Below, piece after piece: positions 4,960 through 59,967 of a stretch of 64,000 bases of DNA (the first letter of the stretch is position 1; the number at the start of each line of letters is the position of its first letter). The notes below the pieces were generated by a model. The model was not told where the DNA came from and did not search any database. It saw only the letters and a program-made list of their open reading frames with translations. The stretch is taken from IMG/VR virus record IMGVR_UViG_3300033066_001054; one strand, 5' to 3'. The translations under genes were made by a program, and so were the position numbers. This DNA is from a virus. Its lineage: Duplodnaviria > Caudoviricetes.

Positions 4960-5820
4960 ATGAGCAACATCCGAAACGTATATGGCATTGACGAGCAAAA
5001 CGAAGAGTTTCTCGCCGCCGCTATGGACACCCCCGAAGGTCGCGTCGCATTAGCGCAAGCTATGGTTGAACCCATTAAGACATCTTTGATGTACCAAGGT
5101 GTAGGCCGCAAGCTGCTGATGGTTGACGAACTGCCGCAGGGTGCCCTTCCTCGCTACGAGCGAGACATCGCAGTTAAGTCTTACGTAATGAGTAAGCGTG
5201 GTTCAGTTCCAACGTCTATCGTTGAAGCTGAAGAGTTGATGGTTCCGGTTCTTGAAATCGCTTGTAACCCAACCGTCAAGCTCAACGAAATCCGTGCCCG
5301 ACGATTCTATATTGTCGACCGCGCACAGGTGAGGGCCAAGGACTCATTGCAGCGACAAGAGGACGCCGAAGTCTTCCGCGTTATCAACGCGGCTGTACCT
5401 TCAGCACACAACATCACGGTTACTGGTTCACTCCAGCCCGAGAACATCAACCTCGCTCTGTCTCTCATTGAAGAGCACGAGTTGATTGGTGCCAAAATTG
5501 TTGTGCATCCTCAGCGCTACAAAGACATCCGAACATGGGGCAAGGAGTTCTATGATGAAGCGACAACTCGCGACATCTTGATGACCGGACTTTTCGGTCA
5601 CTTGTACTCCGCTGACATTCACGTCAGCACCATCGTTCCAAAGAACGCTGTCTACGTATTGGCACCGGCCGCCTTCGTTGGCGCCATGCCAGTCCGCCAG
5701 GACATCACCGTTCTTCCGAGCGACGACCCTCGACGACTCCGCCTCGGCTGGGTCATCTTCGAGGAACTTGGCTTCGCCGTTATCAACGACTACGCCACCG
5801 CTCGAATCATCGTTAGCTAA
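4960..5820 (+). CDS. Major capsid protein (HK97-like fold)
   Basis: 286 aa, AGGAG RBS, codon use biased to C-ending codons, strong terminator after it. Motifs ..IVVHPQRYKDI.., ..GHLYSADIHVS..VPKN..YVL.. and ..GWVIFEELGFAVIN..A.. fit HK97-type capsid proteins of large phages. Confidence 0.85.
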   Translation: MSNIRNVYGIDEQNEEFLAAAMDTPEGRVALAQAMVEPIKTSLMYQGVGRKLLMVDELPQGALPRYERDIAVKSYVMSKRGSVPTSIVEAEELMVPVLEIACNPTVKLNEIRARRFYIVDRAQVRAKDSLQRQEDAEVFRVINAAVPSAHNITVTGSLQPENINLALSLIEEHELIGAKIVVHPQRYKDIRTWGKEFYDEATTRDILMTGLFGHLYSADIHVSTIVPKNAVYVLAPAAFVGAMPVRQDITVLPSDDPRRLRLGWVIFEELGFAVINDYATARIIVS

Positions 5821-10148: not shown

Positions 10149-10424
10149 ATGGCAGATTATAGCAATTGGACAATGGAACAAATTCTCGAGCTAAAGCGCA
10201 GCAAAGAGGTCGAATGGCAATCATTGCGAGAAGAAATTCGCGCACTGGCAAGGGCAGAAGAGCGACTGGTAAGATTTGACGAACTTAAGCGACGCATGGG
10301 TGACAGTGTAACCATTGAAGACCTTGAGATGCTTTCGGATATTCTTAACACTCCGTCTGGACAAAGCGTAAGCGTCGATGGTATTGATGCTTCTGGAAAT
10401 GTCGGTGAGCCGGGCAAAGACTAA
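10149..10424 (+). CDS. Hypothetical coiled-coil protein
   Basis: 91-aa ORF within the operon. Confidence 0.55.
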   Translation: MADYSNWTMEQILELKRSKEVEWQSLREEIRALARAEERLVRFDELKRRMGDSVTIEDLEMLSDILNTPSGQSVSVDGIDASGNVGEPGKD

Positions 10425-45813: not shown

Positions 45814-47070
45814 TTAGTCTATGACTGTCTTACCTGCAAATTCTAGTTCATACTTGCGTAATGCGCTCATAAGTTCATGGTCTGAGCTACTGTCCATCAC
45901 GTCGCTGACACTTCGGCCACTCTTAAGACCCTCAAATGCCTGCGGCCAAACGGCGTAGTATTCAGTGTCTTCAACTGGTTTGCCAGCAGCAACAGCGTTT
46001 TCATAACCCTCACTAATAAATCTTGCCAGGTAAAGAACTCGGTTCAAAACATTTCTAAGCGTCGGCGGGGCCGCCATAGCACCAACATATGAATCGGCGA
46101 CTGCGGAAATGCCAGTAACTGTTGCTGTCTCACCAGAGCCACCAGAGCCACCAGAGCCGCCAGAGCCGCCGCCACCTGTGCCAGTGTCCGTTGGGTCTGG
46201 GTCTGTGACAATGGTAAAGCCCTCAACATCTAGCATCCTGAGTTCCCTGAGTGCAGACATTTCATCATCCACAGAGTAGATACGCATGGCTTCTGAATAC
46301 CTTGGGTTTCTGATTTTAAGCCTGTTGAAGTTTTTGTCGACAACAACATATCCTTCATTTTTATGAGCGTCTGGCTGTTCTTCAATCAGTTCATAAACCT
46401 GGGCCAGCGAGCGTACTTTTTTATAGGGAGCAACCTCTCCGTGAAATTTCATGTTGAAGATGTCAATTTCTTTGAGTGTTTTTCTGTTGACGGCTGCGAC
46501 AAGATATAAATGTGATGTCGAATACAATACCACAACCCTGTTGTCTGGTGTGACTAGTTCAAAAACATAGGACACATCTGGATTGAGCTTGCTTGTGAAC
46601 TCTGCCCAGCTTGTGCCGTTGTTCATAAGTGCTTCTTCAACCAGTTGTCTCCATGTAACAGTTCTGCCAGAACCATTTGGACTTCGCACAATTGAGCTGC
46701 CATCGGCACTAAACCTAGTTGAACACCGCCATTGTCCTTTGTAATGATACATACACACTAATGCGCCGTCGATTTTGTGCATTGCTTTAGCACTAGACCA
46801 ATCAAACTGGTCTGCAATTGCCTTATATCCAGATTCACTGGGTTCAAAAAATGCGCCTATTGGTTTGCAAACAACGTCCCATGTATCGAGCTCCAAAATC
46901 AAACCACGGCACTCTCTGACAATCGGAGAAGATTTTGGACTCAGGGGTCTGTAGTTGAACACCACAACTCCCAATTCGTGATTGACGAAGTGTTGTATGT
47001 CGTATCGCTGATACAGATTTTGCAGCGTCTTGCCAGAACGCAAAAACTCAGATGTGTGTGTCGTGGTCAT
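45814..47070 (-). CDS. T4 Rnl1-family RNA ligase with (GGS)n linker and C-terminal extension
   Basis: RECRGLIL, motif I KIDG, STR, FEL..P.NRVV..Y, EGYVV and RLKI. Confidence 0.85.
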   Translation of the reverse strand: MTTTHTSEFLRSGKTLQNLYQRYDIQHFVNHELGVVVFNYRPLSPKSSPIVRECRGLILELDTWDVVCKPIGAFFEPSESGYKAIADQFDWSSAKAMHKIDGALVCMYHYKGQWRCSTRFSADGSSIVRSPNGSGRTVTWRQLVEEALMNNGTSWAEFTSKLNPDVSYVFELVTPDNRVVVLYSTSHLYLVAAVNRKTLKEIDIFNMKFHGEVAPYKKVRSLAQVYELIEEQPDAHKNEGYVVVDKNFNRLKIRNPRYSEAMRIYSVDDEMSALRELRMLDVEGFTIVTDPDPTDTGTGGGGSGGSGGSGGSGETATVTGISAVADSYVGAMAAPPTLRNVLNRVLYLARFISEGYENAVAAGKPVEDTEYYAVWPQAFEGLKSGRSVSDVMDSSSDHELMSALRKYELEFAGKTVID

Positions 47071-49930: not shown

Positions 49931-51553
49931 TTAGTCTTCGAATTCTACTGGCTTTGCTTCTTTAGCTCCACCAACAAAAGCCGCGATAACCTGCGGGACA
50001 TCAGCCGAGAATCCGGCAATGTCGAGCGCAAGCGGGTCACTTGGGTCTGCGATGCTGAAGTTGCTGGCCGATGTAGCCATAACAACCTGTCGAGCATCCT
50101 TAACAAACGCCTTTCGGTAGTTTGCCAAGGCGACCTTTGGATGTACGCTTCCGAAGTATGTTTCGTTGTCGGTGATGACAATGAAGACATCGTATTCGTG
50201 CTTGCGCTCTCCAGCCCAAATCATTGGCAACGAACAGTCTGTTCGACCGAAGTTGTTCATTTGCGCCTTCTTCATTGCTTCGCTTAGGCTCATCTTTCGA
50301 GTGAACCCAAGGTCAACAAATCGGTCAGCAAATCCCATGACTTCGACTGTTGGTTCTGTTGCTGCCCAGACCATTGACATGGCTGCAGCGACTTCACAGG
50401 CAGACAGACCGCCAGGAAGACCGCTAGTCCAGCTCATTGAGCCAGAAACGTCAACGCCAACCAAGAATCGCTTACCGGTTGGTTCAACGTTTGCAAACGC
50501 CTTATAGAAGGCATCGTCAAGCGAAGACACAACCGCCGAAATTGGATTCCAAGAACCAGAACCCTTCATACCATGACCGCTTTGGTAAGTCTTCATGGCT
50601 ACAAGGACTTGGATTGGGTGAACACGAGACTTTCGAATGTATTCAGCGTCTTCCAGCTTCTTGAGCACCAACTTGGTTGCCGCATTGCCTGGCTTAAGCA
50701 ACTCTGACTTTGTCATGTTGCCCAAGTTTCGAATCAATGCATTCAACGGCATGTGCGGAAGCATTGCATCCCAGACCTCTGGCGCGTTCAAGAACTGCGT
50801 CGGAACAGCCTCTCGAGGCAACTTGTAGTCAGTAATCAGCTTGACAACTTCCTTTGCAGAAGAAGCCTGTGATGCTGCCAAATATCCCTCGACAATTGCC
50901 GGCTGGCTGACTTCTGGAGTCCACTTGTCGTCTACAATCCAGCGATACAGAGCGTTTCGCGATGCATCACCATTCGGAGAAGGGTGACCAACACGCAGAA
51001 CGTCAGCATGGCTCCAACCATTTCGGTTGCGGTACTTGACTGCCTGAAATGCAACTTGGTCAACATCTCTGGCGTCATACCAATTCTTGATTGTTCGCTT
51101 AATTGCACGACCAGTCAGCTTGCGCAATGACTTCAACTCCTCTAGGAAGTAGAAGAACGTTGACGCAGTTCGGCACACATCATTGACGGATGCCAATGCG
51201 GCTTGTCGTGTTTCAAGGTCTCCCTCTGCGGCTGCGACAGCAAGTGCGAACAGAGCGTGGTCTTGCTTTGGTGCAAGGCCTCGAATTGAAACGTCCTTGA
51301 TTCGGTTCACAACACGCAGGCCGTCTGCCTTAAGGCACGCCTTAAGTGCAGCGTAGTTCCGCTTCACGTGCTTGTCCTGGTTGCAGTAATACGTTCCACC
51401 CTCAGCACCGAGAATCAAGAATCTGTCGAGCTGACCCCAAATGCCGATGTCGTAGACGAATCCACCAGCGTCATTCTTGACCTGGCGCTCGTCCAATTGT
51501 TCTGTCTGCCGAACCTTGTTCGGTGATGGCTTAACTGTTGTTGCGTATCTCAT
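49931..51553 (-). CDS. rsr: Ro60/Rsr TROVE-domain RNA-binding protein
   Basis: NDAGGFVY..LDRFLILGAEGGTYY, KYRNRNGWSHAD, ALIRNLG, SRVHP; vWA MIDAS DVSGSM, TDCSLPM, TDNET. Confidence 0.95.
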   Translation of the reverse strand: MRYATTVKPSPNKVRQTEQLDERQVKNDAGGFVYDIGIWGQLDRFLILGAEGGTYYCNQDKHVKRNYAALKACLKADGLRVVNRIKDVSIRGLAPKQDHALFALAVAAAEGDLETRQAALASVNDVCRTASTFFYFLEELKSLRKLTGRAIKRTIKNWYDARDVDQVAFQAVKYRNRNGWSHADVLRVGHPSPNGDASRNALYRWIVDDKWTPEVSQPAIVEGYLAASQASSAKEVVKLITDYKLPREAVPTQFLNAPEVWDAMLPHMPLNALIRNLGNMTKSELLKPGNAATKLVLKKLEDAEYIRKSRVHPIQVLVAMKTYQSGHGMKGSGSWNPISAVVSSLDDAFYKAFANVEPTGKRFLVGVDVSGSMSWTSGLPGGLSACEVAAAMSMVWAATEPTVEVMGFADRFVDLGFTRKMSLSEAMKKAQMNNFGRTDCSLPMIWAGERKHEYDVFIVITDNETYFGSVHPKVALANYRKAFVKDARQVVMATSASNFSIADPSDPLALDIAGFSADVPQVIAAFVGGAKEAKPVEFED

Positions 51554-51592
51554 GTTTTTTCTCCGTACCAGTTTTCCTGGTCTATGTTAGCA

Positions 51593-51623
51593 CAAATGGC
51601 GAGTGAAATTCACTCGCCATTTG
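51593..51623. other. Perfect inverted repeat with 15-bp arms between the Y RNAs and rsr
   Basis: CAAATGGCGAGTGAA-A-TTCACTCGCCATTTG. Confidence 0.7.
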
Positions 51624-51630
51624 AGAAATC

Positions 51631-51764
51631 TATGCGGTCAAGATGTGAGAACGACGTTTAGCTGCTCTACCAACTGAGCTACAACCTCCTTGCGGAGATT
51701 GGTGGGACTCGAACCCACGACCAGCCCTTTAGCATAGGTAATCGTAACTCGTTCGTACCGCACA
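51631..51764 (-). ncRNA. yrlA: YrlA-type Y RNA (tRNA-mimic domain)
   Basis: Terminal stem TGTGCGGTACGAAC../..CTTGACCGCATA (Ro site) encloses a T arm GTGGG-TTCGAGT-CCCAC, a loop-closed acceptor-like stem CAATCTCC-GCAA-GGAGGTTG and a D arm TAGCTCAGTTGGTAGAGC; adjacent to rsr. Confidence 0.9.
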
Positions 51765-51771
51765 AAATGTC

Positions 51772-51834
51772 TCATGGGCAAGTTGTTGCAATTGGTCTTT
51801 ATTTACCAGATAAACCAACTGCTTCGTCCCACGA
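51772..51834 (-). ncRNA. Second, minimal Y RNA
   Basis: TCGTGGGACGAAG../..CTTGCCCATGA has the same bulged Ro helix as its neighbour; inner stem GCAGTTGGT/ACCAATTGC. Confidence 0.75.
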
Positions 51835-51992
51835 AAATCGTGTACTTGTCGTCAGTGCCTTGGCACCTACAAACTACTAATATAATCTGCTTGATGTCTT
51901 CCCATCAGCCATATAGCTCTTAATCCCTCATCGGCTGCGCCACGGCTATACGTGCGCACTTCTAAATCTATTGGTTATTTGCATTCCGTGTT

Positions 51993-52001
51993 ATTATAGC
52001 A
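51993..52001 (-). promoter_or_regulatory. Extended -10 promoter upstream of the Y RNAs and rsr
   Basis: TGCTATAAT on the minus strand. Confidence 0.5.
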
Positions 52002-52021
52002 CGTTTCTCAGAATTCTACAG

Positions 52022-52546
52022 CTAACATCGCCCTCCAGCCCGCCAATTTTGGAGCAGTCCTCTTTCTGTCACTTCTTTCACTGCCTTTGATACAATTTTC
52101 CATGCTTCCCATGGCATATCGCGTCTGATGTAATTACAAGACCAACAACAAGGTTGAACATTATTTTGGGTGTGCCCAATTGTATTGTCAATTCTGTCCA
52201 AACTTAGTTTTTCTTGACTCGTGCAATATGCGCAACCATTCTGAATCAATGCCTGAACAAATTCTATTGTTAAATCATTATCAAAACCCTTTTTTCTATC
52301 ACTCCCTTTTGCGTCTCGCACAATGAATTTTGCACGTGTGGTCTTGTCTTGTCGAGCGGCTTGACGTTGTTCTTTTTCGATTGCCTTTCTTCGCTCCCAT
52401 ACCTCTGGATTGTTTTCATAATACCATCGGCGCATTTTGTATCTACAACTTTCGCATGCACCCCTGTGATATATTCTGCCTTCTTTGACTATTTGTTGAA
52501 AATTCTCAATGGATTTTTCTTCTTTGCACTTAGAACATGTCTTCAT
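52022..52546 (-). CDS. His-Me finger/HNH-type endonuclease
   Basis: CSKC..CESC, CAYC..LDRIDN..GH..NNV.PCC..CN. Confidence 0.8.
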   Translation of the reverse strand: MKTCSKCKEEKSIENFQQIVKEGRIYHRGACESCRYKMRRWYYENNPEVWERRKAIEKEQRQAARQDKTTRAKFIVRDAKGSDRKKGFDNDLTIEFVQALIQNGCAYCTSQEKLSLDRIDNTIGHTQNNVQPCCWSCNYIRRDMPWEAWKIVSKAVKEVTERGLLQNWRAGGRC

Positions 52547-52606
52547 ACAGTTACATTATGCATTGGTGTATACATAACCTTTTAACTGTCAGTACACACT
52601 AATCAC

Positions 52607-52693
52607 TGGTGGGGGCCGTGGGATTCGAACCCACTCAGGCAAATGCCAACAGTTTTACAGACTGGCCCAGCTCTCCTACTCTGGCGCACCCCC
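52607..52693 (-). tRNA. tRNA-Tyr(GTA), atypical
   Basis: GGGGGTG..CAGT-CTGTAAA-ACTG, long variable arm, GTGGG-TTCGAAT-CCCAC, ACCA; G7:G66 mismatch. Confidence 0.8.
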
Positions 52694-52707
52694 AAAATCA
52701 ACAAATT

Positions 52708-52794
52708 TGGTGGGGGTGACAGGATTCGAACCTGCAATGCCTTGCGACGCCAGGGTTACAGCCTGGTAGGGCAACCAGTCGCCCCAACACCCCC
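52708..52794 (-). tRNA. tRNA-Tyr(GTA) with extended D stem
   Basis: GGGGGTG/CACCCCC-A-CCA; CCAGG-CTGTAAC-CCTGG; TTCGAAT T-loop. Confidence 0.85.
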
Positions 52795-52821
52795 GATTGT
52801 ATAGTTATAGTCACTTTCCAT
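52756..52821 (-). CDS. Tyr-codon mini-ORF (MESDYNY..., 21 aa) running into tRNA-Tyr
   Basis: AGAAAGACA ATG GAA AGT GAC TAT AAC TAT; the stop falls in the anticodon loop. Confidence 0.55.
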   Translation of the reverse strand: MESDYNYTIGGVGATGCPTRL

Positions 52822-52848
52822 TGTCTTTCTCTCTCTCTCTCTGAAATT

Positions 52849-53143
52849 TGGTATCAACGGCAGGACTCGAACCTACAGTACGCCCTCCAATGCTTGCATG
52901 CTATGGGCGCGTGTTACCTATCTATCGTCAAATTCACTACTGGGTTATGTACTCACCGAACCTTACTCACACTTCATACTCACCAACAATCCGGACCAAA
53001 CCTGTCTGGCGTTCAACCAGCTCAACGTTTCTAAAGCCTGCAAGCATGATATTTGGGCGTTCATGCTGGATTTCTTGATGTTTTCGTGTTCAACTTTCTC
53101 TAACTTTTCATTCCTCCTATTGTCAAAATTACACTACGTCGAT
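52849..53143 (-). ncRNA. tRNA-like element with ~210-nt D-loop insertion and enlarged anticodon arm
   Basis: ATCGACG/CGTTGAT-ACCA acceptor, GTGT/ACAC D stem split by the insert, CGCCC/GGGCG stem with a 19-nt loop, GTAGG-TTCGAGT-CCTGC. Confidence 0.6.
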
Positions 53144-53162
53144 ATAAACTGTCTGCGCCAGG

Positions 53163-53236
53163 GGTGACCAAAGGAACTCGAATCCTCAATCTTCTGGGCC
53201 ACAACCAGACGCTTTAACCGATTAAGCTATGGCCAC
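53163..53236 (-). tRNA. tRNA-His(GTG), no encoded G-1 or CCA
   Basis: GTGGCCA/TGGTCAC-C; TCTGG-TTGTGGC-CCAGA; TTCGAGT T-loop. Confidence 0.85.
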
Positions 53237-53371
53237 ACCTCGCGCGGTGTTCAAAACTTGGGGCGACCGAGGGGTATCGAGCCCCCTAGTGATTTGGTTC
53301 ACAGCCAAACCCCCTCGCCTTCTGGGTCCGACCGCCATGTTATTCAGTTGTGTATGATGATGGTCGTCCAT
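53222..53371 (-). CDS. His-codon mini-ORF (MDDHHH..., 49 aa) reading through tRNA-His
   Basis: AGAAAGACA ATG GAC GAC CAT CAT CAT; open across the first His tRNA and stops in the D arm of the second. Confidence 0.55.
   Translation of the reverse strand: MDDHHHTQLNNMAVGPRRRGGLAVNQITRGLDTPRSPQVLNTARGVAIA
53259..53336 (-). tRNA. tRNA-His(GTG), atypical T loop
   Basis: G-1:C73, GCGGTCG/CGGTCGC, TTTGG-CTGTGAA-CCAAA, T loop CTCGATA, CCA. Confidence 0.8.
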
Positions 53372-53396
53372 TGTCTTTCTTTCCTAACTACAAAAT

Positions 53397-53470
53397 TGGC
53401 TGGCACGGGTGGATTCGAACCACCATCCATGGAGTAACAGTCCATTATTCTACCGTTGAAATACATGCCA
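53397..53470 (-). tRNA. tRNA-Asn(GTT)
   Basis: TGGCATG/CGTGCCA-G-CCA; ATGGA-CTGTTAC-TCCAT; TTCGAAT. Confidence 0.9.
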
Positions 53471-53472
53471 GT

Positions 53473-54021
53473 TCAGTTTAGCCATTTCCTAATTGCGTTG
53501 TCTGATACCCCGTAGAGTCTTCCAACTGCTGAGACACTCATAGACCTCAATTGGTTAATCAAAATCTCTTTCGTGGGTCTTTCGCATTTTCTGCTTGCGA
53601 TTCTATAACACTCCGCACAGCAATATTTTTGTCCTTTGTTTTTTGGCTTGTATTGCTTGTTGCAAGTTTCGCAAGCCGATATCAACAATAACTTAATTTG
53701 CTTTTCTTGAGGTGACTTTTTCTTGTGCTTCTCCCATTTGTTGTCGTCTTTTGTTGCTTGCCATTTGTAATGTAGTTCTGTATGACATCTTACACACAAC
53801 AAGTCACATTTATCTGCTTCTGCTTTAAGTCTTTCATAAGACCATGATTTTCCACTAATGGTCAAGTCTTTTTGATTCGGGTCTCGATGATGAAATGCAT
53901 ATGCTGGCGGACAATCTTCTTCGTAACCACATTGGATACATTTTCCACCTTTGTACTCAATCAGCAATCTTTTTACCCTTCTTCTCCATGACACAACCTT
54001 GTGTGTTTTACTTGCACTCAT
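53473..54021 (-). CDS. HNH homing endonuclease with C-terminal HTH, between the two tRNA-Asn genes
   Basis: KGGKCIQCGY..FHHRDP..K..KCDLLCVRCH..LH; GRLYGVSDNAIRKW. Confidence 0.85.
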   Translation of the reverse strand: MSASKTHKVVSWRRRVKRLLIEYKGGKCIQCGYEEDCPPAYAFHHRDPNQKDLTISGKSWSYERLKAEADKCDLLCVRCHTELHYKWQATKDDNKWEKHKKKSPQEKQIKLLLISACETCNKQYKPKNKGQKYCCAECYRIASRKCERPTKEILINQLRSMSVSAVGRLYGVSDNAIRKWLN

Positions 54022-54074
54022 AAGTGTTTGTTAACCAAAAAAGTTAACCATACCTCTGTATGAGTTCGAAATTT

Positions 54075-54150
54075 TGGAGGCCCGCCTGGGTTCTGACCCC
54101 AGCCCTTTCCGTTTAACAGACGTCTGCAACTACCAGCTTGCTCACGAGCC
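54075..54150 (-). tRNA. tRNA-Asn(GTT), strongly atypical
   Basis: GGCTCGT/GCGGGCC-T-CCA; GCAA/TTGC D stem; CGT-CTGTTAA-ACG; T loop GTCAGAA. Confidence 0.7.
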
Positions 54151-54197
54151 TTGATGTTCGCGCTCCAGCGCGTCACATCAAGTGGCACGCCTTCGCG

Positions 54198-54221
54198 CTA
54201 ATTATTGTCGTTGTCCTCCAT
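54198..54221 (-). CDS. Asn-codon mini-ORF MEDNDNN
   Basis: GAGGAAAAGGACA ATG GAG GAC AAC GAC AAT AAT TAG, 47 nt before tRNA-Asn. Confidence 0.55.
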   Translation of the reverse strand: MEDNDNN

Positions 54222-54243
54222 TGTCCTTTTCCTCGTCAAATCT

Positions 54244-54280
54244 AAAAAAAGAAAGCCCGACCTTGTGAGCCGGGCTTTCT
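54244..54280 (-). terminator. Attenuator terminator of the tRNA operon
   Basis: AGAAAGCCCGGC-TCACAAG-GTCGGGCTTTCT followed by a T run. Confidence 0.9.
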
Positions 54281-54302
54281 TGGGGATTGGTCAATCTTAC
54301 GA

Positions 54303-54416
54303 TTAAGCCTGGTACCCCCAGTTAGCCCGAACCATATTGGGATAATTATGCACGGCGGTATTGGCCTGATAGGCCAACCGTGTGCTTCCATTATGGTTAT
54401 TCAAGCTAAATCGCAT
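54303..54416 (-). CDS. Asn/His/Tyr-rich leader peptide (37 aa)
   Basis: MRFSLNNHNGSTRLAYQANTAVHNYPNMVRANWGYQA; AAGGA RBS 6 nt upstream; lies between promoter and terminator. Confidence 0.8.
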   Translation of the reverse strand: MRFSLNNHNGSTRLAYQANTAVHNYPNMVRANWGYQA

Positions 54417-54455
54417 GTTCATTCCTTTCGCGATGTTTTCATCGCTCACCTTCAT

Positions 54456-54484
54456 ATTATACAACAGACTTCGTTTTTTGTCAA
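54456..54484 (-). promoter_or_regulatory. Consensus sigma70 promoter
   Basis: TTGACA (54479-84), 17 nt, TATAAT (54456-61). Confidence 0.9.
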
Positions 54485-54530
54485 GAGGTTCCGAGAAAAA
54501 TCCGAAAAAAGTCGTGTTTGAACCCGAAAA

Positions 54531-55007
54531 TCACGTCTTAACTTGGGTCTTGGCTGCTTTTTCTGCGCTTTCCCTGGCCTCTTCGTATGACATTCCAGAT
54601 GCATACAGTTCGCAGATGTGTGGAAAAATGGCTTCGTAATCCTTCCTGTGGTCTAGAAACTCTTTCGCTTTATCTTGAGTTCCTTCTGGCCATTCTGAGT
54701 CAATCTTTTTCTTTGTGCAACCCATCTCGGAGTATACATAGTATTGCCCCCAAAAATTTCCGTGGTCACGATTTTCACGACCGCAACCAGAGCAATCCAG
54801 CATATGAGACCAGAAATATGCATCCACAATATCTTGATACACACGGAGCGCCATTATGACAGGCGACTCAAATCTTGAATTCGTCTTGCCAGTGATTTTG
54901 TTGGCAAAACTTGCATCGAGGTCGCACGAGATAGATTCAAATGAACCAGTAATGGCTTGAACCAGGTCGCAAACCTCTTGGTGCGTTGGTCTTTGCAGAA
55001 TTTCCAT
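54531..55007 (-). CDS. Hypothetical protein
   Basis: 158-aa ORF. Confidence 0.55.
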   Translation of the reverse strand: MEILQRPTHQEVCDLVQAITGSFESISCDLDASFANKITGKTNSRFESPVIMALRVYQDIVDAYFWSHMLDCSGCGRENRDHGNFWGQYYVYSEMGCTKKKIDSEWPEGTQDKAKEFLDHRKDYEAIFPHICELYASGMSYEEARESAEKAAKTQVKT

Positions 55008-59115: not shown

Positions 59116-59967
59116 TTAGTCGCCGTCCAGCATCAAGTCAATTTCTTCGGCGTCTGGCAACAAGTCAATGTTGTCGTCGCCGGCTGGAATTTCGTAGTCA
59201 AAGCTATTGCTTCGAGTGTTTTGTCCGCCAGCAACATATTGGTCGCGCTGGAAATTGCTCATGTTGACCTGTGCGGTTCCACCAAAGCCTGTGCTTTCTG
59301 GAACGGTGGCAACTGTAGCCCTGCCACGACCGGTTACACCCGAAGTCTGTCCGAGTGCCTCTGGCACAAATCCAATCTGGTCAAGTAATCCCTGAAGGAA
59401 CCTTGGATTTTTTTCAATTTGAGCATTAAAGTCACGCGCATTGGCCTCTTGTCCACTAGCAGCGCACATTCGCGTATAGACCTGGAGTGCCATTGCATAT
59501 GTTTTGGGGTCATTGGCATCGCCGGCCAAGCTCATTGGTGCTCGATTGTTTGGACTTTCAGCATTGACGTTGATTGCCTCGGCGGCGACTCTTCGTCCAT
59601 TGGCATCAACACCCACCATGCGATTGCCGTGCATTTTCTGCGCGAGCTCCATTTGTTCAATCTGCTGCTCTTGTTGAAGAATGGCTTCATACTGAGACTG
59701 GCTGATACGAATTAACGAACCGCTGTTAAGTGCTTTGGCAAGGTCGTAGCTTTGTTTGACCAATTCAGACTTTTCCCAAAGAAGGTTCTTAGCCTCAAAT
59801 GGACCAAACGAAAGGTCGATGTCGGAAATGTGGTGAATGCCAGGGTACGGATTTTGGACATAAAATGTCTCTTGAACCTGCTCCGCTGCTTCAGCCTGAG
59901 GTGTTGTGCGAGCTGCTCGCGTATTGCTAGGCGACTTGGCCCGTGGGGTTGTGTTTTTGTTACTCAT
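59116..59967 (-). CDS. Hypothetical protein
   Basis: AAGGAG RBS before MSNKNTT (59967). Confidence 0.6.
   Translation of the reverse strand: MSNKNTTPRAKSPSNTRAARTTPQAEAAEQVQETFYVQNPYPGIHHISDIDLSFGPFEAKNLLWEKSELVKQSYDLAKALNSGSLIRISQSQYEAILQQEQQIEQMELAQKMHGNRMVGVDANGRRVAAEAINVNAESPNNRAPMSLAGDANDPKTYAMALQVYTRMCAASGQEANARDFNAQIEKNPRFLQGLLDQIGFVPEALGQTSGVTGRGRATVATVPESTGFGGTAQVNMSNFQRDQYVAGGQNTRSNSFDYEIPAGDDNIDLLPDAEEIDLMLDGD

Follow-up and report, generated by a model that had tools for sequence, protein, structure and literature searches.

Leader-peptide transcription attenuators, such as hisL, trpL, thrL and pheM of pheST, and translational attenuation leaders are the described systems closest to the elements reported here. 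As far as we are aware, tRNA genes are thought to be controlled by their promoters and not species by species. The two types of leader are treated in excerpts of PMC1183508 and PMC3082878 (leader-peptide attenuators) and of PMC8274638 (ermC, ermB and cat), and literature searches returned no description of leader open reading frames (ORFs) in front of tRNA genes. Here, we describe a tRNA operon of a jumbo phage in which three such mini-ORFs are found. The operon lies in a 64-kb stretch of the IMG/VR virus record IMGVR_UViG_3300033066_001054 (64,000 nucleotides, nt; below, the window) and is read along the minus strand from 54500 to 52500. By their codons, the three mini-ORFs match the tRNAs that stand downstream of them (Asn, His and Tyr); they are conserved codon by codon in relatives and are specific to this cluster. 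We put the probability that they are translated, sense specific codons and act on the pre-tRNA next to them at roughly 55%.

The motif ARGACAATGGA was found three times in the window against 0.11 expected, and none of 100 shuffles reached three copies. A preliminary description of this DNA, made from the sequence alone, had reported a recurrent start context in three copies before tRNA genes; indeed, exactly three copies are present, all within one tRNA operon (Table 1). The reading frames given there, MEDNDNN*, MDDHHH.. and MESDYNY.. ahead of the Asn, His and Tyr tRNAs, were re-read as claimed, and the Asp codon noted in all three is present in each as GAC. The statement that each ORF precedes a tRNA pair holds for His and Tyr but not fully for Asn, where the first member is degenerate and an HNH ORF lies between the two. 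The shorter string GACAATG had been seen before the gene at 59967, where we also found it, and it additionally starts an 83-codon ORF at 10173. Since it also starts other genes, we read GACAATG as a favoured start context and not as a tRNA signal.

The three leaders share ATG-GA and one GAC codon, and their main difference is the run of cognate codons. Codons 2 to 8 hold three Asn, three His or two Tyr codons, each set matching the next tRNA. As a background for these counts we used codons 2 to 8 behind all 2,637 ATGs of the window. At least three Asn codons were found behind 0.27% of these ATGs, at least three His codons behind 0.34% and at least two Tyr codons behind 1.5%. Relative to random ATGs of the window, the joint chance of a codon match at the three motif-defined sites is 1.4e-7. 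Two of the ORFs enter the body of a tRNA, as had been described. Mini-ORF 2 (MDDHHHTQLNNMAVG..) has 49 codons, with its stop ending at 53222, and crosses the non-canonical tRNA-His into the tRNA-His at 53236-53161. Mini-ORF 3 (MESDYNYTIGG..) has 21 codons, and its stop ends at 52756, inside the anticodon loop of the first tRNA-Tyr.

Relatives were found via the neighbouring Ro60 protein, and the syntenic loci were then compared. They form four lineages: A, with the window, L001 (93% Ro60 identity) and L012 (89%); B, with L013 (78%); C, with L015 (76%) and L014 (71%, with a much higher G+C content); and D, with L018 (56%). The Asn-His-Tyr tRNA cluster is present in the window and in all six relatives. 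The codon-tRNA match, for which the preliminary description had proposed to look in homologous clusters, was kept there, and the changes resemble those of coding sequence; this result favours translated sensors, each specific to one tRNA species. The Asn and Tyr mini-ORFs were found in all six syntenic relatives, and the His mini-ORF in five of the six plus the contig L027. Across the sequences, the Asn leaders read MEDNDNN*, MEENDNN*, MEEGNNI*, MEDDNNNN* and MEDDNKK*; the His leaders, MDDHHHTQLNN.., MEDHHHSEQLN.., MDDHHHSGQLN.. and MDDHHHSRQLN..; and the Tyr leaders, MESDYNYT, MESDYTY, MESDYSYT, MESDYTN and MKDDYNYQ. The kept features are a start codon, which is ATG in every instance, an acidic opening and the cognate codons. 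Peptide residues other than the cognate and acidic ones are not conserved.

Between lineages, identity was 82-87% in the 21-nt cores of the leaders versus 49-59% in the 30 nt just upstream. The 18-nt His core, which lineages A, C and D share with L027, shows three changes only (GAC>GAA, GAC>GAT and CAT>CAC), all of them in third position. Synonymous changes (AGT>AGC, TAT>TAC) were also observed in the leaders. The residues that separate the cognate codons are variable (N, T or S), and the insertions and deletions in the Asn and His leaders comprise whole codons and stay in frame; the His ATG stands 33, 39 or 45 nt ahead of the tRNA. The leaders also remain with the first tRNA where neighbouring genes have been lost. 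L001 and L013 lack the first Tyr gene, and the Tyr leader there abuts the remaining tRNA-Tyr. L013 is the sole locus without the His leader, and the non-canonical tRNA-His is absent there too. As a separate observation, the stop codon of the Asn mini-ORF differs among relatives (TAG, TGA or TAA).

A search with the His-leader pattern gave seven metagenome and two genome matches, of which only L027 adjoins tRNAs. We took the other eight to be unrelated, as ARAGORN finds no tRNA there. L027 is a 19.6-kb metagenome contig with different neighbours, and at 357-640 on its minus strand a His unit, MDDHHHNQQLNM, stands ahead of three tRNA-His genes (70, 75 and 92 nt). Since this unit stands in an unrelated contig, the His leader and tRNA-His appear, from these sequences, to travel as a module. 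In IMG/VR, the pattern of the non-canonical tRNA-His matched the known relative alone, and the JGI metagenomes gave no match to it. A 15-mer of the Tyr leader matched more than 119 viral contigs, none of them next to a tRNA; we regard these as chance matches, and they are uninformative.

The closest IMG/VR relative of the window phage, a contig of 478,840 bp, has terminal repeats and gives about 62 tRNA matches. In this genome (G001, 479 kb), about 60 further tRNAs, tRNA-Asp and many same-anticodon pairs included, lack a codon-matched leader. Nor was such a leader found at the tRNA clusters beside Ro60 in the distant phages L003 and L004 (50% identity). The other Ro60 homologues were set aside: P0013, P0015 and P0016 lie in unrelated contexts, and P0008 and P0011 have no tRNAs nearby. 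In G001 (L005-L008), adjacent same-anticodon pairs occur for Glu, Phe, Val, Gly, Thr, Lys and Gln. As these pairs reach beyond the families with GUN anticodons, paired isoacceptors are a genome-wide habit of this phage. The same genome has tRNAs with the anticodons CUA and UCA (L005 10229-10304 and L009 569-643), of amber and opal suppressor types, which hints at stop-codon reassignment at some stage.

An ATG with a purine-rich tract was observed in all 20 leader instances across eight sequences. The tracts, for example GAGGAAAAGGACA, AGGAAAGAAAGACA and GGAGAAAACGAT, resemble the GGAGAAA-type tracts of bona fide genes, such as GGAGAAAAAAC before Ro60. On the minus strand from 51500 to 54600, no promoter or terminator was detected besides those heading the operon, so that the mini-ORFs lie in one read-through transcript behind the head attenuator. 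Judged by these sequence features, the three are under selection, with the signature of coding sequence, and are most likely translated leader ORFs inside a polycistronic tRNA transcript. Their translation, a cis effect on tRNA maturation and the sign of this effect (scarcity giving more tRNA) are all three what we infer.

The head of the operon contains an ORF of about 37 codons (MRFSLNNHNG...HNYPN...), which sits in a 1:2 / 2:3 / 3:4 hairpin scheme ending in a terminator. ORF and fold are conserved in seven sequences, and this attenuator reads the same three codon families as the mini-ORFs. In a stem of the head element we also noted a compensatory change, GGCC/GGCC in the window versus GACC/GGTC in L001. 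Control would then come in two tiers, with the head attenuator acting on the whole operon and the mini-ORFs, which lie inside the read-through transcript, forming a second, family-specific tier. Each leader would sense the speed of decoding in a single codon family, Asn, His or Tyr, and the position of the ribosome, set by the speed at which the cognate codons are read, would decide the folding and the 5' cut of the first tRNA of the pair.

In the Asn unit, the ORF stops about 48 nt ahead of the tRNA and lies on a predicted two-hairpin switch. Hairpin A starts at the stop codon and is the minimum-energy fold in seven of seven sequences, although the stem sequences differ; it exceeds dinucleotide shuffles in most of them (z = -1.2 to -3.3). 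A change to hairpin B was predicted in all sequences when the 10 nt after the stop were blocked, mimicking a terminating ribosome, with z = -2.2 to -3.3 for B in four of six sequences against the same type of shuffle. The mean pairing probability of the last 8 nt of the leader was 0.01-0.57 with no ribosome or with a ribosome held at the first Asn codon, and 0.44-0.97 with a ribosome at the stop. A ribosome at the stop codon would thus melt hairpin A, and hairpin B would form against the RNase P site; with a ribosome waiting on the first Asn codon, this site would stay single-stranded. From the predicted change between A and B, scarcity of Asn-tRNA would keep the RNase P site single-stranded.

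In the His unit, 17-26 nt separate the last His codon from the tRNA. A ribosome that stalled on the His codons would leave at least 7 nt free before the tRNA, and this geometry fits the stalling model. In the consensus fold, no conserved structure was seen within the leader. GAC CAU CAU can pair with AUGGUGGUC, the 5' strand of the tRNA-His acceptor stem with G-1 included. This pairing reaches 9-10 base pairs (bp) in L014, L015 and L018 and belongs to the minimum-energy fold of six of seven sequences; as a modelled interaction it is weak. A ribosome paused on GAC-CAU-CAU-CAU would stop before the tRNA and hide a stretch able to pair with the 5' acceptor strand. The tRNA concerned is the non-canonical tRNA-His, to which Rfam gives 32.1 bits as a tRNA (53335-53262) and which forms a cloverleaf in the consensus fold of seven sequences.

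In the Tyr unit, the second Tyr codon lies 0-6 nt from position +1 of the tRNA. The footprint of a ribosome extends about 10 nt past the A-site codon. With this value, a ribosome paused at the first Tyr codon would end 1-2 nt before +1 in five of seven sequences. No structure and no leader-tRNA pairing was predicted for this unit (fewer than 2 bp expected), and the first tRNA-Tyr folds as a cloverleaf independently of the leader. Here, the ribosome would compete directly with the acceptor stem.

Several observations weigh against the proposal that the mini-ORFs are sensors of this kind. There is no structural logic common to the three units. Hairpin B is weak in L013 and L018. Pairing at least as strong as that between the His leader and the acceptor stem is predicted for 25% of control tRNA leaders, and in lineage A, which retains the His codons, an A.C mismatch interrupts the His pairing and is not compensated. 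If paused at the second Tyr codon, a ribosome would cover nt 1-4 of the tRNA, or nt 1-10 in L013. With this codon so near the tRNA, it is doubtful that stalling lets the tRNA of the Tyr unit mature, and scarcity might hinder maturation instead. Moreover, the match has partly eroded: L018 has MEDDNKK* with one Asn codon, L015 has MESDYTN with one Tyr codon, and L013 is without the His leader. The sample amounts to about five independent lineages. Finally, CAA CTG AAT of the His leader is nucleotide-invariant in four lineages, and this points to some constraint at the RNA level too. The mechanism put forward in the preliminary description, in which free translation through the pre-tRNA blocks folding and stalling allows maturation, would fit the three units unevenly.

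We therefore weighed other explanations. An untranslated role of the RNA, through anti-acceptor pairing, T-box-like anticodon pairing or a binding or processing signal, would make codon reading secondary. It could draw on the nucleotide invariance of CAACTGAAT and on the 9-10 bp predicted with tRNA-His in three of the relatives. However, that pairing is the one equalled by control leaders and broken in the window's own lineage, its counterpart is not predicted for Tyr, and Rfam scans of the region with E-value limits of 1 and 10 give no T-box match. The conserved ATG, the purine tract, the frame, the third-position changes and the in-frame indels would also be left unexplained, and we consider this role unlikely, though it may hold for the His unit. 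Translated sensors with a transcriptional output, in which the ribosome position controls RNA polymerase pausing or factor-dependent termination, seem improbable to us as well. Ribosome-mediated attenuation already operates at the operon head by our reading of it, hairpin A at the Asn stop codon resembles a classical attenuator pause hairpin, and a stalled ribosome on tnaC blocks Rho. Yet no intrinsic terminator lies between any mini-ORF and its tRNA, and the spacers of 0-50 nt, structured or A-rich, leave no room for a long C-rich Rho loading site.

The mini-ORFs might instead be translated and exert no cis control, as minigenes that sequester host tRNA in the manner of lambda bar, as a means of transcript protection or coupling, or as sources of functional small peptides. 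Their shortness and acidic opening residues would suit such roles, which we nevertheless judge quite improbable: only the Asn ORF has a nearby stop, unlike the lambda bar minigenes, the peptide shows no conservation beyond its cognate and acidic residues, and the strict placement before the matching tRNA, kept despite loss or moves of neighbours, points to a role in cis. That the codon match is a by-product of a conserved spacer, for example one with RNase processing sites, in which the codons have no function, could be argued from the handful of lineages and from the partial erosion in L018, L015 and L013. Against this stand the joint chance of about 1e-7 in the window alone, the persistence of the match in four to five lineages with flanks at near-random identity, and the fact that the leaders differ from each other mainly in their cognate codons. 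We consider chance excluded for practical purposes.

If the mini-ORFs are sensors as proposed, the virus would measure the decoding speed of single codon families and adjust the maturation of the matching tRNA. Such a feedback device would be simple, made of a handful of codons, and would extend leader-peptide sensing from enzyme genes to adaptor molecules. It would constitute an undescribed class of cis-regulator for tRNA genes, beneath an operon attenuator and beside a Ro60/Y-RNA/RNA-ligase repair module. In its full form, surveillance of each phage tRNA by a leader of its own codons, with the waiting time of the ribosome gating folding and RNase P access, is a possibility that we advance tentatively. 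It would provide supply on demand per tRNA family, e.g., when host nucleases cut tRNAs with GUN anticodons, and so bears on why phages carry tRNAs, the countering of host tRNA nucleases being one example. A link to queuosine was also considered and dropped: it would rest on the shared GUN anticodons only, and the complete relative has no TGT gene and a weak QueC-family match only.

The tRNA-Asn-like gene at 54150-54075 is called neither by ARAGORN nor by Rfam in the window, and likewise in L001; in the window its anticodon stem is weak, with just three pairs left. Decay of this stem was seen in the window only. In relatives the two Asn tRNAs adjoin, and ARAGORN calls both in five of the six. 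The HNH ORF that splits the pair (54021-53473) is absent at that place in all six relatives, L001 included; its HNH-type His/Cys motifs were recognized by eye, and a Pfam HNH match was not found. A second endonuclease-like (HNH-like) ORF lies downstream of the Tyr tRNAs at 52022-52546 on the minus strand.

An insert of about 330 nt (52850-53160, minus strand) separates tRNA-His from the Tyr leader and ends as a tRNA-like T arm plus acceptor. The window, L012 and L015 have this insert; L001, L013 and L018 do not. In L014, its place is taken by a called 90-codon ORF (4988-5260), which overlaps the end of tRNA-His and terminates within the Tyr leader in a different frame. Directly downstream of the tRNA operon lies the Ro60 gene (TROVE and vWA domains), in a Ro60/Y-RNA neighbourhood spanning 49931-51755 on the minus strand, with a YrlA-like Y RNA at 51755-51645 on that strand (a sub-threshold Rfam match of 41 bits, for a cut-off of 69). 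Further on, a 418-amino-acid (aa) ORF at 45814-47070, again on the minus strand, corresponds to an L012 orthologue for which a precomputed Pfam match to T4 RNA ligase 1 exists. Together, Ro60, the Y RNA and the ligase-like ORF look like an RNA-repair neighbourhood. Regarding the relatives, L013 is contig C5 of G002, 1.36 Mb long and labelled as an Armatimonadetes metagenome-assembled genome. It has dense phage-like tRNA clusters at about 95-520 kb and scattered chromosome-type tRNAs beyond. Either the assembly is chimeric or a jumbo prophage has integrated here, and the latter would give a hint of the host.

Table 1. Features of the tRNA operon in the window, in order of transcription, with the copies of the start motif in the last line.
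Feature	Position	Strand	Remarks
Sigma-70 promoter, perfect (12/12)	54484-54456	minus	heads the operon
Operon head: promoter, 37-codon Asn/His/Tyr-rich leader ORF, alternative hairpins, terminator	54244..54484	minus	
Intrinsic terminator	54281-54249	minus	upstream of mini-ORF 1
Shine-Dalgarno-like purine-rich tract GAGGAAAAGGACA	54222..54238	minus	ahead of mini-ORF 1
Mini-ORF 1, ATG GAG GAC AAC GAC AAT AAT TAG = MEDNDNN*	54198..54221	minus	3 Asn codons
Hairpin A	54160..54198	minus	minimum-energy fold; base takes in the last stop-codon base
Hairpin B, alternative	54152..54180	minus	formed in part by the 3' arm of A; ends next to tRNA position -1
Degenerate tRNA-Asn-like gene	54075..54150	minus	loop CUGUUAA, non-standard T loop; hand reading and fold
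HNH-type homing endonuclease ORF, 182 aa	53473..54021	minus	between the Asn tRNAs; outside the sensor
Canonical tRNA-Asn (GTT)	53397..53470	minus	ARAGORN; Rfam 63.3 bits
Mini-ORF 2 core, ATG GAC GAC CAT CAT CAT = MDDHHH	53354..53371	minus	ORF continues to 53222
Non-canonical tRNA-His (GTG), first of pair	53259..53336	minus	G-1, 3-bp D stem, C54
Canonical tRNA-His (GTG)	53161..53236	minus	ARAGORN; Rfam 64.1 bits
Mini-ORF 3 core, ATG GAA AGT GAC TAT AAC TAT = MESDYNY	52801..52821	minus	ORF continues to 52756
tRNA-Tyr (GTA), first of pair	52708..52794	minus	starts 6 nt past the second Tyr codon; ARAGORN
tRNA-Tyr (GTA), second of pair	52607..52693	minus	ARAGORN; Rfam tRNA 31 bits
ARGACAATGGA, three copies	54227-54217, 53377-53367, 52827-52817	all minus	ATGs at 54221, 53371 and 52821

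Two further known systems were considered. The minigenes of lambda bar have two to three codons followed by a stop and act through peptidyl-tRNA drop-off; the mini-ORFs described here have 7-8, 49 and 21 codons, and we rejected this type for them. In transfer-messenger RNA (tmRNA), a tRNA-like domain is joined to a tag ORF that has no start codon. A tmRNA or a tRNA-mRNA hybrid was rejected as well, as the mini-ORFs start with ATG, ARAGORN finds no tmRNA and Rfam gives sub-threshold T-arm matches only. The acidic starts MED, MDD, MESD and MKDD are reminiscent of mgtL-type leaders and intrinsic ribosome destabilization, and excerpts of PMC9718836, 10.1101/2021.02.02.429294 and PMC11282234 report that N-terminal acidic residues destabilise or pause ribosomes. 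This is a resemblance only, and the acidic start may reflect the common ancestry of the leaders.

By analogy, the mini-ORFs follow the logic of leader-peptide attenuators and of translational attenuation leaders. As in the ermC, ermB and cat leaders, a paused ribosome would remodel a nearby hairpin and permit a downstream event on the same RNA; unlike in those leaders, the pause signal would be scarcity of a cognate tRNA and not an antibiotic, and the downstream event would not be the exposure of a ribosome-binding site. With leader-peptide attenuators, the mini-ORFs share a short ORF with a start codon, a ribosome-binding tract and codons cognate to the regulated product, and the position of the ribosome would likewise be read through RNA structure, most clearly in the Asn unit. 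Mutually exclusive hairpins (A and B) are predicted for Asn, a weak leader-acceptor pairing for His and none for Tyr. In contrast to that family, whose defining feature is an intrinsic terminator, none follows the mini-ORFs; the regulated product is a tRNA 0-50 nt downstream and not an enzyme gene; two of the mini-ORFs enter the body of a tRNA; and the likely output is folding or processing and not termination. In the arrangement described here, three single-family leaders lie within one operon downstream of its head attenuator, each standing before its own tRNA pair and dispensing with a terminator.

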